Part shown: positions 1 to 12,545 of the stretch, one piece after another
Numbering within the stretch: the stretch's first letter is position 1
Layout of the letters: each line of letters starts with the position of its first letter
Source of the DNA: an archaeon
GTDB taxonomy: Archaea; Iainarchaeota; Iainarchaeia; Iainarchaeales; Iainarchaeaceae
Length of the DNA stretch: 20,385 nucleotides
Assembly: GCA_035289485.1 (NCBI GenBank)
Contig: DATDXA010000027.1
Location: forward strand, 1-20,385
Direction of reading: 5' to 3'
The notes under the pieces: model-generated
What the model saw: the letters and a program-made list of their open reading frames with translations, nothing else
Told to the model about the DNA's origin: nothing
Database searches by the model: none
Program-made: the position numbers and the translations under genes

Positions 1-57
1 AATTTTTTCCTACAGCCGCGCGGCATTCGGCTTAAACCTTTCGCCCTCTTGTGAGGC

Positions 58-71
58 CAAAAGGATTTAAT
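58..71 (+). promoter_or_regulatory. Putative archaeal BRE/TATA promoter for the small ORF + homing endonuclease operon
   Basis: CAAAAGGATTTAAT: purine-rich element followed by TTTAAT, resembling AAAAGGGATTTAAAT upstream of the second PCNA gene in this window. Confidence 0.45.
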
Positions 72-90
72 GCCTCTGCCGCGCCAAAAA

Positions 91-120
91 GCCTCCGGAA
101 AAAATTCCTTTCACGGAGGT
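91..120 (+). promoter_or_regulatory. Stem-loop sequestering the Shine-Dalgarno sequence of ORF 128..277
   Basis: GCCTCCG-GAAA (91-101) pairs with TTTC-A-CGGAGGT (109-120), with one bulged A and a 7-nt loop; the 3' arm contains the SD GGAGGT. Confidence 0.5.
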
Positions 121-127
121 GGTTCGA

Positions 128-277
128 ATGGAGTTTTCAAAAGAATTTCAAATTCTTCCTCCGACATCGGAGGAAATAATCGCGGCACAAAAGTTGCTGG
201 AAACGGATTCAGAATTCCTTACAGACAGGGAACTCTGGATTTTGTCAAACTATTTTGAGGAAGGTGATTGGGAATGA
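128..277 (+). CDS. Small acidic hypothetical protein (49 aa, MEFSKEFQILPPTSEEIIAAQKLLETDSEFLTDRELWILSNYFEEGDWE), not in the ORF track
   Basis: Translated by hand. SD GGAGGTG at 115-121 precedes ATG 128; its TGA (275-277) overlaps the endonuclease ATG (274) as ATGA, suggesting translational coupling. Confidence 0.7.
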   Translation: MEFSKEFQILPPTSEEIIAAQKLLETDSEFLTDRELWILSNYFEEGDWE

Positions 278-1362
278 ACTGTATGGCTTTGCCATACTTG
301 GCACCGGCACCGAACCCTGCACCGGAATATAATCCTCTCAAAGAGGCTTCTGTTATGGTGCCTCTTATCACTGAGCAGGATATCATTAGCACATATTCTG
401 CCAAAGAACAGTTTTCTTGCAGGAAATATTCTGAGTACCAGAAACTGATTGCAGAAAATCCAAGCTTTGGTTACAAGAGGGCTGCCAAAATTCTGGGAGT
501 CAAACCCGGAAAGACCCGCTGGTGGCACACCAAGGGCGAGAAGCGGGCGGTTCCATTGCCGCTCAAGGCTGCGCAAAAACTCAAAGACGCCGGGCTTCTT
601 CCATTTTACGAAAATCACAAAGACGCCGAGATTATCTTCAATATGCTCGGTGTATTGTTTGGCGATGGCGGAGTAGATGCCCTCTACAACGGGGTTGCAT
701 TCATCTCTTCGGACAAGAACGACATTGATTTGTGGGAATCAGATTTGCGCAGGGCATTTCCTTCAGCAAATGGGAAGATTGATATTATTGAAGGCGGGGA
801 ATACGGTCACTCGTATAATATCCGGTGTTACGACCGCTCAGTTATCAGATTTTTTGCGGCGTTAGGCGCTCCGGTCGGGGACAAAGTAAGCATTGTGTAC
901 TCCTTGCCAAAATGGATTTTCAACTCTTCGGATAACTCAAGGGCGGCTTTCCTTGACGGCTATCTTGCTGCTGAAGTTTCCGTAGTGAGATGGCGAGCCG
1001 ACTCGCTTGGAAATTTCCGATTTACCGATTTTGCCGTGGGCATTTCAAAGATTGAATTCCTTGAAAATGAGCACCGAATATTTATGAAAAGCCTTGAGGC
1101 GCTTCTTAAATCTGTCGGGATTCAAACCACAGGGAACATCCACAAAAACTCCGGTGCCGGCACACACCGCAAAGACGGTGCCTTTAGCGCCTCTTATAGA
1201 ATATTCATAAGAACGACTTTTCATCGTGTGCTTTTCTTCAACGAGAAATTTCAGTTACGGTACGCGTCATGGAAAAAGAGGAAAATGGTGAAAGTAATAC
1301 AAAAGGCCGTTTACGAGAAAAACGGCCAGCAAATCCCAGAAAATTACCTGCCAGAAAGTTAA
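274..1362 (+). CDS. Free-standing LAGLIDADG homing endonuclease (intein-type, with N-terminal HTH)
   Basis: Two LAGLIDADG-like helices, MLGVLFGDGG and FLDGYLAAEV; intein-endonuclease-type segment RFFAALGAPVGDK..LPKWI; HTH-like GYKRAAKILGVKPGKTRWW. No intein splicing blocks at either end. ATG 274 is preferred over TTG 268 (GAAGGTGA SD, ATGA overlap). Confidence 0.88.
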   Translation: MNCMALPYLAPAPNPAPEYNPLKEASVMVPLITEQDIISTYSAKEQFSCRKYSEYQKLIAENPSFGYKRAAKILGVKPGKTRWWHTKGEKRAVPLPLKAAQKLKDAGLLPFYENHKDAEIIFNMLGVLFGDGGVDALYNGVAFISSDKNDIDLWESDLRRAFPSANGKIDIIEGGEYGHSYNIRCYDRSVIRFFAALGAPVGDKVSIVYSLPKWIFNSSDNSRAAFLDGYLAAEVSVVRWRADSLGNFRFTDFAVGISKIEFLENEHRIFMKSLEALLKSVGIQTTGNIHKNSGAGTHRKDGAFSASYRIFIRTTFHRVLFFNEKFQLRYASWKKRKMVKVIQKAVYEKNGQQIPENYLPES

Positions 1363-1394: not shown

Positions 1395-1763
1395 ATGGAA
1401 AAAATTGATGGGCTCGAAGAAAAAGTAATGCTATTAATTAAAGCCAGGCAGGCCGGAAAACTTTCAGATTTAAGGCAATACCACGAAGCGCTTTCGGATT
1501 TGGATAGGGAACTGCTCGAATCAATCTTCACTGAAACTTGGGTACGTGGTTCTTTCTACAAAAAGCCAATGGGCTATGCCGAGAGAATGGGCCTGATAAT
1601 TGCAAAATACCCCGATGCTTACAAGCCTTGGGACAAAAACCAGGAAGAGAAACTAATCGAACTGCACAATGGTGGGAAATCAATAAGTGAAATCGGCGAA
1701 CTAATGCTCAGGCAGAAGGGTGCCATTAGTGCGAGGCTGAAAAGGCTCGGAGTGATAAAATAA
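1395..1763 (+). CDS. Small protein with C-terminal Myb/HTH-like DNA-binding domain (122 aa)
   Basis: C-terminal AYKPWDKNQEEKLIELHNGGKSISEIGELMLRQKGAISARLKRLG fits the W-x-x-x-E-x-x-x-L...G-x-S-I-x-E-I...R-x-x-G-A-I-x-x-R-L helix-turn-helix pattern. ATG 1395 avoids the overlap with the endonuclease gene. Confidence 0.7.
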   Translation: MEKIDGLEEKVMLLIKARQAGKLSDLRQYHEALSDLDRELLESIFTETWVRGSFYKKPMGYAERMGLIIAKYPDAYKPWDKNQEEKLIELHNGGKSISEIGELMLRQKGAISARLKRLGVIK

Positions 1764-1811: not shown

Positions 1812-2495
1812 ATGGCCGGATTATTTGCGCACGAGTGGATTGCAAAACTGGTTTTGGGTAAGCTTTCCAAAAGGGGCTTCATTTCTGGCTACGAAAACAT
1901 CGATGATTATTTTTTCGGGGCAATAGCTCCTGATATAAGATACATAAACAATTCAGGGCGGGACATCACGCACCGGCCTTTTGGGGAGAATTCTATTTTT
2001 GAGGCATTGAAGGTAAGTAGTTCTTCAATGCCTTTCATTGCAGGCTATGAAACGCACTTAATTGTTGACGGCACATGGGCAAATGACAACGGTGCACTTG
2101 GAAGGAGCATCTACCAAAATTATGGCGTTAACGCAAATAATCCCATCCAAAAATTTTCCCTGTATCTGGCTGTTGATGATTATTTTCAGGCGGAAGCCGA
2201 TTGGGTTTTTCCTTTCGAAAGTTCAGGCAATATCCTGCGGGCAGATGACCTGTCTATTTTATTGAAACTTGGGTTCGGGCAGAAAGATATTGCCATATTC
2301 AAGGCAGCCGCAGCGGCATATGTGCGGGCTCCCGGGATTATCAATTTCAGGCCATTTAACATTCTGCCGAATAATTTTGACGAAACACTGCTAAGAAAAA
2401 TTGCCGACCAAATTCCTGCGATGACTTCTTTTCTCAAGGAGTTCAGGGATGTTTCGGTAGAAAAGTGCGTGGAGTCCTTGGAGCGGTATTTATGA
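1812..2495 (+). CDS. Zinc-dependent phospholipase C / P1-nuclease-fold family protein
   Basis: N-terminal His (AHEWIA), FFGAIAPD, ITH and AGYETHLIVD match the metal-ligand pattern of the Zn_dep_PLPC family; no signal peptide; substrate unknown. Confidence 0.7.
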   Translation: MAGLFAHEWIAKLVLGKLSKRGFISGYENIDDYFFGAIAPDIRYINNSGRDITHRPFGENSIFEALKVSSSSMPFIAGYETHLIVDGTWANDNGALGRSIYQNYGVNANNPIQKFSLYLAVDDYFQAEADWVFPFESSGNILRADDLSILLKLGFGQKDIAIFKAAAAAYVRAPGIINFRPFNILPNNFDETLLRKIADQIPAMTSFLKEFRDVSVEKCVESLERYL

Positions 2496-2640: not shown

Positions 2641-2649
2641 CTATATAAT
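2641..2649 (+). promoter_or_regulatory. TATA box for the IntC-Lon(C) gene
   Basis: CTATATAAT lies about 25-30 nt upstream of ATG 2672, the spacing expected for a leaderless archaeal transcript. Confidence 0.55.
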
Positions 2650-2671
2650 GATTTTGGAATCACTAGCTATC

Positions 2672-2794
2672 ATGGAATTCAGGGCTAAAGAGGAAAATGT
2701 CACTTCCGTGCAGAAGCGCCCGTTCAAGGGCCATGTTTACAATGTCACAACCGAGACCGGAAATCTCTTTGTTGAAGATATTCTCGTTCACAAT
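2672..2794 (+). other. C-terminal half (IntC, 41 aa) of a split intein
   Basis: Block F-like [13 protein letters not shown] and block G ILVHN followed by Ser+1 (SGGLGTPPH). In-frame stops at 2618-2620 and 2627-2629 show that no N-terminal intein part is contiguous. Confidence 0.9.
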
Positions 2795-4102
2795 TCCGGC
2801 GGCCTTGGAACCCCGCCTCATTTGCGCGTGGAGCCCGGAATGATTCACCGCGCCTCTGGCGGAGTTTTGTTCATTGATGAGATTGCAACCCTTTCCATGA
2901 AATCTCAGCAGGAGCTTCTCACTGCAATGCAGGAGAAAAAATATCCAATTACAGGCCAGAGCGAGATGAGCTCGGGCGCAATGACGCGCACCGAGCCTAT
3001 CCCGTGCGATTTTGTCCTTGTTGCCGCGGGAAATTATGAGGACCTTGAGAAGGTTCACCCGGCACTTCGCTCAAGGATTCGCGGGTACGGATATGAAGTT
3101 TACATGAACCTTGAAATGGACGATAATGAGGAGAACAGAAACAAGATTGTGCAGTTCGTTGCGCAGGAAGTCACAAACGATGGGAAGATTTCGCATTTTG
3201 CAATGGACGCCGTTGAGGAAATAATTTTCGAGGCAAGAAGGCGCGCCGGAAGAAAAAACAAGCTAACCCTTAAGCTGCGTGATCTCGGAGGCCTCGTGCG
3301 CGCGGCAGGAGACATTGCAAAAGAAAAGAACCACAAGTTCACAACGCGCCAGGACATCATAGAGGCGAGAATGAGCGCAAAAACTCTTGAGCAGCAGATG
3401 GTTGGCAAGATGATTGATGAGAAGAAGGATTACGATGTTTATTTGCGCGAGGGCTCGGCAATAGGGCGCGTAAATGGCCTTGCCGTAATGGCAGATGGCG
3501 ATGCCGGCCTTGTAATGCCAATCGAAGCCGAGATTGCGCCCGCGCAATCCGCAAGCGAAGGAAAGCTGATTGCAACAGGAAAGCTTGGGGAAATTGCAAA
3601 GGAAGCCGTGCAGAATGTTTCGGCAATAATTAAGCGCCTCTCAGGCAAGGACATTTCAAAGAGCGATCTGCACATCCAATTCCTGCAATCTTATAGCGGC
3701 GTTGAGGGGGATTCTGCTTCAGTTAGCGTTGCAACAGCGGTTGTTTCCGCGCTTGAAGGGATTCCGGTCAAGCAAAGCCTTGCAATGACCGGCTCTCTAA
3801 GTGTTCGCGGCGAAGTCATGCCGGTTGGCGGAGTGACTTCAAAAGTTTCAGCGGCAATTACTGCGGGGTTTGCAGAAGTGATAATTCCAAAGTCCAATAT
3901 GGGCGATGTTGTGCTGACCGCGGAGCAGGCAAAGAAGGTGACCCTTATCGCGGTTTCAAATCTTTCCGAAGTTTTAGAGAATGCGTTCGTGAAAGGCGAG
4001 AAAAAGGACAGGCTGCTTGCAAGCCTTAAGAAGCTGATGAAGGATGCCTCGGCGAAAGATTCGGTGAAGGGAAAGCCGGGCGCCGCAATAACTTCAATTT
4101 AA
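2672..4102 (+). CDS. lon: ATP-dependent protease LonB, C-terminal part, fused to IntC
   Basis: [20 protein letters not shown], Walker [10 protein letters not shown], sensor-1 LVAAGN, Arg finger [13 protein letters not shown], catalytic Ser GVEGDSAS and Lys GGVTSKV. Walker A and the N-terminal region are absent. Alternative start ATG 2648. Confidence 0.95.
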
Positions 4103-10470: not shown

Positions 10471-10565
10471 GCATCTTCCTGCCGCCCCTCAATACTTTTA
10501 AAGGCTTCAGTGTTCCATACTATTAGCAAGTATTGTTCAAATTTCATGTTTTGCAGGTTTTACAA

Positions 10566-11312
10566 ATGAAGCTGGTTTTTGAGGACGCGTCGCTCTTTAA
10601 GCGCTATATAGACGGGCTTTCAGCGCTCGTAGACGAATCCGAATTCGTTATAAGCGAGAGCGGCCTTGGCCTCAAAGCTACCGACCCTTCGCAGATTTCC
10701 CTAGTGGATTTCACTTTGCCAAAAAAAGCCTTCAAGAAGTTTGAGGCCGCAGCAGCTACAAAAATCGGCGTGGACCTAAACTACCTAAACCAGATTACCG
10801 GAAGGGCAAAGGCCCGGGATTCACTTGAGCTTTCACTTTCTGAGGATTCATCAAAGCTTCTTGTGGTTTTCGCAGGCGGCTCTAAAAGAAGCTTTTCAAT
10901 TCCGCTCCTCGATATTTCTTCAGCAGATCTTCCGCTTCCGCGCATTGAGTTCGATGCTGAAATAAAAATCAGGGCGGATGCGCTGCAAAACAGCTTCAAG
11001 GACGCCGATCTCATTTCCACGCACATAAATCTTTCAGTTGAGAATGATTCATTTGTTGTGCGCGCGAACTCGAGCAAGGGAAACCTCGAGAACGTTTACT
11101 CCGCAAAGGACAAATCGGTAGTTTCACTTAAAGCCCAGGACCAGGTGCGCGCGATGTTCCCGCTTGATTATTTGGAAAATATTGTAAAGGCCGCTTCATC
11201 AGATACTGAAATAACAGTGAAACTAAAGACGAATGCGCCTGTTGAGATTTCATATTCGCTTGGCGAAGGGAAGTTCACTTACTACTTAGCGCCGAGAATC
11301 GAATCAGAATAA
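10566..11312 (+). CDS. pcn: DNA polymerase sliding clamp PCNA, paralogue 1
   Basis: ATDPSQISLVD, IGVDL, IPLLD connector, FPLDYL, C-terminal YYLAPRIE; about 248 aa. Confidence 0.95.
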   Translation: MKLVFEDASLFKRYIDGLSALVDESEFVISESGLGLKATDPSQISLVDFTLPKKAFKKFEAAAATKIGVDLNYLNQITGRAKARDSLELSLSEDSSKLLVVFAGGSKRSFSIPLLDISSADLPLPRIEFDAEIKIRADALQNSFKDADLISTHINLSVENDSFVVRANSSKGNLENVYSAKDKSVVSLKAQDQVRAMFPLDYLENIVKAASSDTEITVKLKTNAPVEISYSLGEGKFTYYLAPRIESE

Positions 11313-11822: not shown

Positions 11823-12545
11823 ATGATTGAGCTAAAAAACGCCGGTTTTCTAAGGTCTAGTATTGAAGCCATTTCTTCTTTCATACCAGAAGGCAACTTC
11901 AGGTTCAATGAAAAGGGAGTGCATTTCCGCGCAATTGACCCAAGCCAGGTGGTGCTTGTTGATTATTTCATTGAAAAGAGCGCCTTTGACGCGTTCGATA
12001 TAGAGCCTTCTTTTGTGGGAGTTAACCTCTCGGAGATGAATAAGATTATTTCGCGCGCGCTTCCGGATGATAGGCTTATTTTGGGGCTTTCAGAATCTGA
12101 AATGAAGATAAGCTTCAAAGGTGAACTTGAGCGCCAGTTCAAGCTCCCTCTTTTAGATATTTCAGAGGGCGAACTAAAGCTTCCTGAAACAAAGTACGAG
12201 GCGCAGGTTGAAATCAATGCGCGGCTCCTAAAAGAAGCGCTAAAGGACGCTTCGCTTTTCAGCTCAAGTGTTGTTCTAAAAACCAAGGGGGACAAGTTTT
12301 TTGTAGAATCGCGGGGTTCAGCCGGAGTTCTAAACATCAGTTCCGCGCAGGCAAAGGGCGTAAAAGTCAAATCCAAAGAAGAGGTTGTCTCAAAATATTC
12401 ACTTACTTATCTGCAAAACATTGTAAAGGAGGCGAATCCGGATTCAACCATTCTTCTAGAGCTCAAAACCGATTCGCCGATGAAGGCGAGCTATACAATA
12501 GGCAAGAGCGAGATACGGTTTTACCTAGCGCACATGCTAATTTAG
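11823..12545 (+). CDS. pcn: DNA polymerase sliding clamp PCNA, paralogue 2
   Basis: AIDPSQVVLVD, VGVNL, LPLLD, SKYSLTYL, FYLA; 240 aa. Confidence 0.92.
   Translation: MIELKNAGFLRSSIEAISSFIPEGNFRFNEKGVHFRAIDPSQVVLVDYFIEKSAFDAFDIEPSFVGVNLSEMNKIISRALPDDRLILGLSESEMKISFKGELERQFKLPLLDISEGELKLPETKYEAQVEINARLLKEALKDASLFSSSVVLKTKGDKFFVESRGSAGVLNISSAQAKGVKVKSKEEVVSKYSLTYLQNIVKEANPDSTILLELKTDSPMKASYTIGKSEIRFYLAHMLI

Follow-up and report, generated by a model that had tools for sequence, protein, structure and literature searches.

How does a homing endonuclease come to stand as a gene of its own between the two halves of an intein-bearing host gene? The origin of split inteins, and the gain of endonucleases by inteins, have been argued from models with few intermediates (PMC2677866). 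There Dassa et al. (2009) describe fractured genes (gp41-1, NrdJ-1 and IMPDH-1) that combine split inteins with a free endonuclease; the endonucleases, in what are probably viral loci, are GIY-YIG or Vsr-like, types "not known to be present in inteins". The model given there has a mini-intein invaded and allows later in-frame fusion, and LAGLIDADG enzymes are suggested to be capable of the same. Another route, in which a stop arises in a decaying endonuclease, is outlined in a 2025 preprint (10.1101/2025.01.02.630785).

Here we put the question to a split archaeal lon gene whose C-terminal half lies in a stretch of 20,385 nucleotides (the window) with which contig C27 begins, in an archaeal genome of 1.16 Mb; the close relatives that have names belong to Iainarchaeota or Diapherotrites. 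The original prediction held that a free-standing LAGLIDADG gene in the window appears to be the released internal domain of the Lon intein itself. Our joint reading, which we consider probable, is that this ORF is the endonuclease of the LonB intein inserted at HDP[LF]Q/SGGL[GE]T, that the split cassette homes, and that the endonuclease was freed from a fusion with the N-terminal intein half (IntN).

Organization of the split lon locus

The locus runs in the order LonN-IntN, leader, endonuclease, passengers, IntC-LonC (Table 1). We treat it as one locus because the last 12 nt of contig C35 are the first 12 nt of the window, and the end of C35 and the start of the window are colinear in two related loci, L039 and L041. 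In four DNA sequencing runs, one contig spans positions 108-2827 without differences and one extends beyond position 1; contigs end at 2798/2827, which may point to a second allele. LonN ends in HDPLQ, and the IntN that follows begins with Cys and stops after 134 residues. The original prediction had given this side of the junction as DPFQ; HDPLQ is also what 46 of 47 empty alleles carry. At the other end the C-terminal junction reads ...VHN/SGGLGT, and the C-extein comprises the C-terminal two thirds of LonB. The end of IntC at 2794 agrees with the predicted distance of 1.3 kb from the endonuclease. The marks of a naturally split class 1 intein are thus all present: Cys1, TPEH (TxxH, block B) and His-Asn/Ser (block G and +1).

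Table 1. Features of the split lon locus (window coordinates unless a contig is named).
Feature	Position	Strand	Remarks
N-extein of LonB + IntN	contig C35 1132-2151, outside window		Cys1, TPEH block B, own stop
Structured 5' leader, two hairpins	1..127, begins upstream on C35	+	fold z -5.2
Upstream ORF, 49 aa	128..277	+	stop overlaps endonuclease ATG at 274
HTH-like + two-motif LAGLIDADG gene, free-standing	274..1362	+	conserved core from ATG 355
Promoter-like motif CACCGGCACCGAACC	302..316	+	TATA-like run 327-333 follows, 38 nt before ATG 355
Passenger ORF, 122 aa, no Pfam family	1395..1763	+	homologues within same cassette in L045, L047
Passenger ORF, 227 aa, weakly zinc-phospholipase-C-like	1812..2495	+	PF00882 E 4.6e-5, 23.9 bits, below 26.8 cut-off
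IntC half, blocks F + G, ends His-Asn	2648..2794, start 2648 or more likely 2672	+	weak PF14890 match, positions 121-155, E 0.016
LonB C-extein, first residue Ser+1	2795..4102	+	TIGR00764 E 8e-198

This is the layout of the fractured genes of Dassa et al. (PMC2677866): extein N-IntN, free endonuclease and IntC-extein C, with the host gene in two ORFs at one locus and in one orientation, an intein half on each and a free-standing endonuclease ORF in between. Those genes are also alike in having a hairpin upstream of the endonuclease, endonuclease-less loci and an IntC of 33-54 residues; IntN is 134 aa here versus 88-105 there.

Homologues of the 227-aa passenger (42-84% identity) lie inside many split lon cassettes; the zinc-phospholipase-C-like gene was also seen in L117, L028, L026, L032 and L035, with two copies in genome G002. 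Farther along the window two PCNA-like genes lie close together (10533-11312 and 11823-12545), followed by apparent primase-like genes. Two more intein C-terminal motifs (V..HN/S) occur in the source genome, G000, on C4 (~5467, minus strand) and C43 (~3216, plus strand), one of which precedes an integrase-like tail.

A separate LAGLIDADG endonuclease gene

As predicted, the endonuclease is a stand-alone ORF: the open frame covers 268..1362, and 362 codons run from ATG 274 to its own stop. Nor does it contain splicing blocks, another point of the prediction, as IntN and IntC references match other ORFs only. A Pfam/NCBIfam search gave a single weak signal, to an RtcB intein model (E 1e-16, residues 103-341), and neither a Pfam family nor a solved structure related by sequence could be assigned to it. 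The AlphaFold model (pLDDT 91.6, from a 27-row alignment), however, matches PI-PfuI (Z 17.4, rmsd 2.8, 189 residues aligned) and I-DmoI (Z 16.4), residues 88-322 corresponding to monomeric LAGLIDADG enzymes. The protein thus has a predicted two-domain LAGLIDADG fold, with an acidic residue ending each LAGLIDADG helix, in common with PI-PfuI, I-DmoI and I-Tsp061I, but it is only 13-18% identical to them and has an extra N-terminal helical domain of ~85 residues.

Both LAGLIDADG motifs have an acidic residue at position 8, accompanied by a conserved Lys. Among 95 homologues, Asp 664-666 is kept in 93, Lys 883-885 in all 95 and Glu 973-975 in 94, so the prediction that both acidic positions are retained holds. 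We take these three residues to be catalytic, as they are in the LAGLIDADG family. The Gly expected after the second acid is replaced by Val, which we considered as a sign of decay and rejected, because Val is the family norm (59/95 homologues, with Gly in 7/95). Against six relatives dN was 0.15-0.32 and dS was saturated. By these comparisons the endonuclease gene now stands on its own, subject to purifying selection and with its presumed catalytic residues intact.

Kinship with the endonuclease domain of Lon inteins

We found 102 proteins of similar length, most of them 46-81% identical to the ORF. The original prediction had named best matches in unrelated endonuclease families, or in inteins of other host genes, as evidence against it; all eight longer homologues are Lon proteins with a contiguous intein. 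The likeness to Thermococcales Lon inteins noted in that prediction is real: LonB of Thermococcus nautili (WP_042693108.1) aligns with 32% identity over 291 aa (E 7e-33), the motif counterparts being GLLPL, LFSDGN and RFFVALGAPVGNK..LPWW. In a profile search the distant relatives were inteins of Hef, RtcB, RFC and others, along with many stand-alone ORFs, two of which we located outside any split gene.

Scanning the GTDB genomes yielded 86 confirmed stretches, the best 80 of which were kept and gave 79 loci; the patterns used were derived from this endonuclease family, and the scan is therefore silent on distant relatives elsewhere. In all 79 loci (best 80 of 86 stretches) lon pieces adjoin the endonuclease at one and the same site, the a site, which reads HDP[LF]Q/SGGL[GE]T in archaeal LonB (HDPLQ/SGGLGT in the source genome). 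The endonuclease is free in 45 of these 79, half-split in 28 (LonN-IntN-endonuclease, stop, IntC-LonC) and part of a contiguous intein in 6, and is never fused to IntC alone. Both lon halves share a contig in 36 of the 45 free loci.

The phylogeny with Lon-intein endonuclease domains that the prediction had called for puts 76 a-site lon endonucleases in one branch of a 114-row tree (SH-aLRT 99). A 92-row mixture-model tree agrees, with 50 a-site rows in one branch (support 99); relative to the 114-row set it omits 30 rows, which were near copies or belonged to three long branches, and gains 8. Supports of the endonuclease, Lon and joined trees are SH-aLRT values from short searches under LG+G4, the 92-row mixture tree excepted. 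A single clade (98/91) likewise unites the splicing domains of these elements, and for 39 matched rows the endonuclease-only, splicing-only and joined trees yield the same four groups: A, the free forms of Iainarchaeota and some Micrarchaeota, including that of the window; B, euryarchaeal-type contiguous inteins including that of T. nautili; C1, Micrarchaeota-type contiguous inteins; and C2, Woesearchaeota-type free and half-split forms. In AU tests on 47 rows, placing group A with stand-alone non-lon ORFs was rejected (p 0.001), as was placing it outside the other Lon endonucleases (p 0.028). The closest odd homologue, the sister sequence P0114, lies directly behind a LonN-IntN. P0157 is a form from a second lon site, the b site. 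For P0133, P0140 and P0146, stand-alone proteins near the Lon endonucleases, a search for genomic context gave one weak match in 401 genomes.

The eight Lon homologues, the 79 loci, the congruent trees and the AU rejections together show, at the level of sequence comparison, that the ORF is this intein's own endonuclease: it is orthologous to the domain that contiguous and half-split inteins carry in frame at the a site, and it has descended together with the splicing domain. That part of the prediction, the intein's own endonuclease and not an unrelated invader, stands. The locus in this respect departs from the fractured genes of PMC2677866, since the endonuclease is LAGLIDADG rather than GIY-YIG or Vsr-like and is not of a type foreign to inteins that came in by invasion; a capture in the distant past may nevertheless have occurred.

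Leader and promoter-like motif

The leader is more stable than each of 200 shuffled sequences, and 11 of its 27 consensus pairs show two-sided change among 12 copies; there was no match in Rfam. Its second hairpin covers the Shine-Dalgarno-like GGAGGTGG of the small upstream ORF. A hairpin precedes the endonuclease, as in the fractured genes; in this locus the ribosome site under it is that of the small ORF, to which the endonuclease would be coupled. Homologues of the small ORF (41-76% identity) stand upstream of the endonuclease in relatives, and in all 11 loci where it was detected (33 examined) its stop is overlapped or directly adjoined by an in-frame ATG. The leader with an ORF of 40-50 aa bearing a TDRELWIL motif is repeated elsewhere in the source genome, on C21 (L149), C5 (L162) and C52; the pair is kept in many split lon cassettes, and the leader sequence is also present in L120, which is endonuclease-less.

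The 15-mer promoter-like motif occurs in the genome in 12 exact and 6 one-mismatch copies, as against none in three shuffled genomes, and 14 of the 18 copies lie 38-41 bases before an ATG. Among the genes behind it are those for NurA, Hef, RadA, UvrB and a DHH nuclease, together with four other LAGLIDADG ORFs and some small genes of PIN or toxin-antitoxin-like type. Upstream of the endonuclease, L039 and L041 have the motif exactly or with one mismatch, and four further loci have a degenerate version; of 41 genomes, 6 contain exact copies, most of these being of the same genus. The form CACCGGCACC[GT]AACC, preceding TATA-like runs, was also seen in G001, G002, G005 and G016. We read the motif as a candidate operator of a DNA-damage regulon. 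Two starts are plausible for the endonuclease, since the conserved core begins at Met 355 while the variable extension, 274-354, overlaps the motif: expression would be coupled to the upstream ORF (ATG 274) or driven by a motif-TATA promoter shared with recombination genes (ATG 355). That ATG 274 is an artefact of the promoter motif was considered and rejected in view of the 11 loci with an ATG at the stop of the small ORF.

Release or capture

The original prediction derived the three genes from a single contiguous intein. That is one of three histories of nearly equal standing, because roots on group A, B or C could not be told apart (AU p 0.57, 0.56 and 0.40) and one contiguous group looks re-fused. 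The contiguous forms do not make one group in the joined data (AU p 0.025) or in the endonuclease (p 0.009), which implies repeated changes of state at the junctions, although their monophyly is compatible with the splicing domain taken by itself (p 0.33).

The nearest outgroup in both domains is the Lon intein at the b site, 71 residues downstream of the a site. The best non-a match of IntN is to this intein (32-53 bits, others at most 31), and the two sites group together in both trees, though only weakly in that of the splicing domain (87/58). Wherever an endonuclease was seen at the b site, in 5 loci and 3 proteins, it is fused to IntN (half-split). Hand parsimony on the 39-row tree then counts three changes at the IntN-endonuclease junction if the a+b ancestor was fused and four if it was not; at the endonuclease-IntC junction it counts three changes if the ancestor was joined and two if it was already split (three with the first split included). 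There is therefore a margin of one step for release from IntN and none for a contiguous ancestor. We think it probable that the endonuclease was released from an IntN fusion, with about half of that likelihood going to a fully contiguous ancestor; most simply it would have been cut loose from the half-split state, which is the weakest step of our proposal.

The main alternative, which we regard as rather unlikely, differs in direction only. It supposes capture in progress, in which a stand-alone HTH-LAGLIDADG gene invaded and fractured the Lon intein (step II of Dassa et al.); the free state would be old, and the half-split and contiguous states would have followed elsewhere by in-frame fusion (step IIIa). 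The lack of a single contiguous group speaks for it, and the window's group lies outside all contiguous inteins in the mixture-model endonuclease tree (support 89) and is the first branch of the joined tree (support 32). In a further splicing-domain tree, separate from the 39-row set, group A however sits beside contiguous C1 (91/81), and capture would need four independent IntN fusions (at the b site and in the euryarchaeal, Micrarchaeota and half-split forms), against three changes from a fused ancestor; the splicing domain's tolerance of a single contiguous group also counts against it. The Lon endonucleases nest among stand-alone ORFs (support 99, mixture tree), and since the wider family is rich in such ORFs outside lon, capture did happen at some depth. 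The hairpin leader is a further point for capture, being placed as in Dassa's invading endonucleases and having copies before other genes in the genome. So is the C-terminal end of the C1 inteins, where the endonuclease tail runs directly into a shortened, acidic IntC strand, which looks as a later fusion would leave it. By contrast with C1, and again speaking against release, the split IntC of A, C2 and the b site have the usual strand pattern, hydrophobic at -14, -11 and -6, and the same pattern is present in an unrelated contiguous intein at the a site. The strand is basic in split forms (mean charge +3.1 to +3.7) and acidic in contiguous ones (-2.3).

Distribution of the cassette and possible homing

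The preferred reading, in which the endonuclease was released and the cassette homes, involves the following steps. LonN-IntN and IntC-LonC would be made separately and joined by protein trans-splicing; the endonuclease would cut intein-free lon alleles at the junction; and repair would copy the whole cassette (IntN, leader, endonuclease, passengers and IntC) into the cut alleles, so that a split intein would still home.

In a survey of the phylum, 40 of 215 genomes match the endonuclease at E 1e-30 (35 stand-alone, 3 in contiguous Lon and 2 in the b-site form only), the lon context having been checked for the fetched matches. On a 77-row tree of the part of Lon that follows the b site (empty in 41 rows, split in 30 and other in 6), the split state needs 22 changes, at least 12 of them forced by starred branches; shuffled labels gave a mean of 23.9, the observed number being no fewer, and the choice of empty genomes from carrier families favours such mixing. 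In the near-identical sisters G013 (split) and G009 (empty), 13 of 60 nt differ around the junction and 66 of 1740 elsewhere, and G127 and G125 differ at 16 of 60 versus 210 of 1740; in a 60-nt span chosen after the sequences had been viewed, the tract is clear in these two of four sister pairs and without significant excess in the other two. All 39 intein carriers encode Ser+1 by TCN, whereas 27 of 47 empty alleles use AGY; because the rows are related, the Fisher p for this contrast is an overstatement. G009 and its empty neighbours G016, G018, G007, G010 and G019 all have AGY, and the TCA tract of G013 therefore looks like an imported newcomer. Distances among 16 carriers correlate at 0.56 between LonN and LonC, at 0.33 between endonuclease and IntN, and at 0.07-0.22 between cassette parts and exteins. 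These patterns fit homing of the whole split cassette, with loss by recombination as the alternative; recombination with empty alleles would also produce a tract and a patchy tree.

A further possibility, which we hold to be improbable, is that homing has been lost, that the protein is kept for another job such as DNA binding or regulation, and that the patchiness reflects repeated loss of the cassette. WhiA does share the fold of our model (Z 14.8), the gene stands behind a host-like promoter motif, the split lon is endonuclease-less in the nearest relative, G002, as well as in G017, G023 and others, and broken copies of the endonuclease are found in L040 and L066. Yet a DNA-binding role of this kind is hard to square with near-invariant Asp, Lys and Glu, with the new look of the TCA tract in G013, or with the losses themselves, since absence from close relatives makes the endonuclease dispensable. 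As for the recent arrival of an unrelated endonuclease in the gap of a mini-intein that had been split before, passengers do enter the lon gap and a second, different intein family occupies the a site in G038 and G012, but the two AU rejections, the congruence of endonuclease and splicing-domain trees and the lack of any close relative outside lon (79 loci, best 80 of 86 stretches), in viral contigs or on plasmids make it exceedingly improbable. That second family, in G038 (L118) and G012 (L119), is contiguous, and its endonuclease is without the N-terminal helical domain.

Comparison with other inteins

A search for published accounts of split Lon inteins in these archaea found none, the literature covered being mostly outside subscription journals and exclusive of InBase; PMC4031507 cites a paper on the P. 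abyssi Lon intein. The contiguous Lon inteins of Thermococcales and Archaeoglobus (WP_042693108.1; P0007, Archaeoglobus sp.) occupy the same site, with homologous IntN and IntC and an endonuclease of 32-35% identity. They differ in being one polypeptide that splices in cis, in a second motif with DG where ours has E-V, and in an acidic IntC strand where ours is basic. Cyanobacterial DnaE and the DNA polymerase of Nanoarchaeum equitans are, like lon, encoded by cellular genes that an intein divides, and their products are joined in trans, as those of lon would be; their halves, however, are unlinked and without an endonuclease, and the DnaE split is read as one irreversible event (PMC2677866), whereas most genomes keep the lon halves linked and split alleles are interspersed with intact ones. 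From the fractured genes of Dassa et al. the locus is set apart as a chromosomal archaeal protease gene for which contiguous, half-split, free and endonuclease-less forms are extant, with signs of homing. It thus seems to work like a fractured gene, the new elements being the intein's own endonuclease and a cassette that seems to home.

Since a single element occurs at this site in contiguous, half-split, three-gene and endonuclease-less versions, the order of steps is testable. If a split intein does still home, gene fracture could spread horizontally and would not be a one-off. More tentatively, and with some doubt, we suggest that the lon site in DPANN and other archaea preserves all states from contiguous to bare split, with release and re-fusion, and that the three-gene form is a selfish cassette that still homes, splits intact lon genes on its way and carries passengers, its endonuclease timed to a radA/nurA/hef/uvrB damage regulon. 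The endonuclease is a candidate LAGLIDADG scaffold, and the family supplies many natural split inteins, several of which begin with Ser or Thr and use Ser+1. Among 23 free Iainarchaeota loci the first residue of IntN is Cys in 16 and Ser in 7; it is also Ser in L117, L120, L035 and L124, split loci where no endonuclease was found.

Some loci depart from the common arrangement. In G525 the C half of lon is on another contig; L238, L247 (G525) and L224 have LonN-IntN and the endonuclease followed by unrelated genes, with IntC-LonC on another contig, possibly an uncoupling in which the endonuclease is kept. The Lon of L014 (G012 contig C43) groups with a family other than that of its bin, and L058 and L063 are Iainarchaeota-type cassettes under other taxon labels; binning errors or transfer are the probable causes. 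In L026/L039, L027/L067, L031/L069, L034, L035 and L166, lon is in three pieces, with split inteins at both the a and b sites, and would need two trans-splicing steps.
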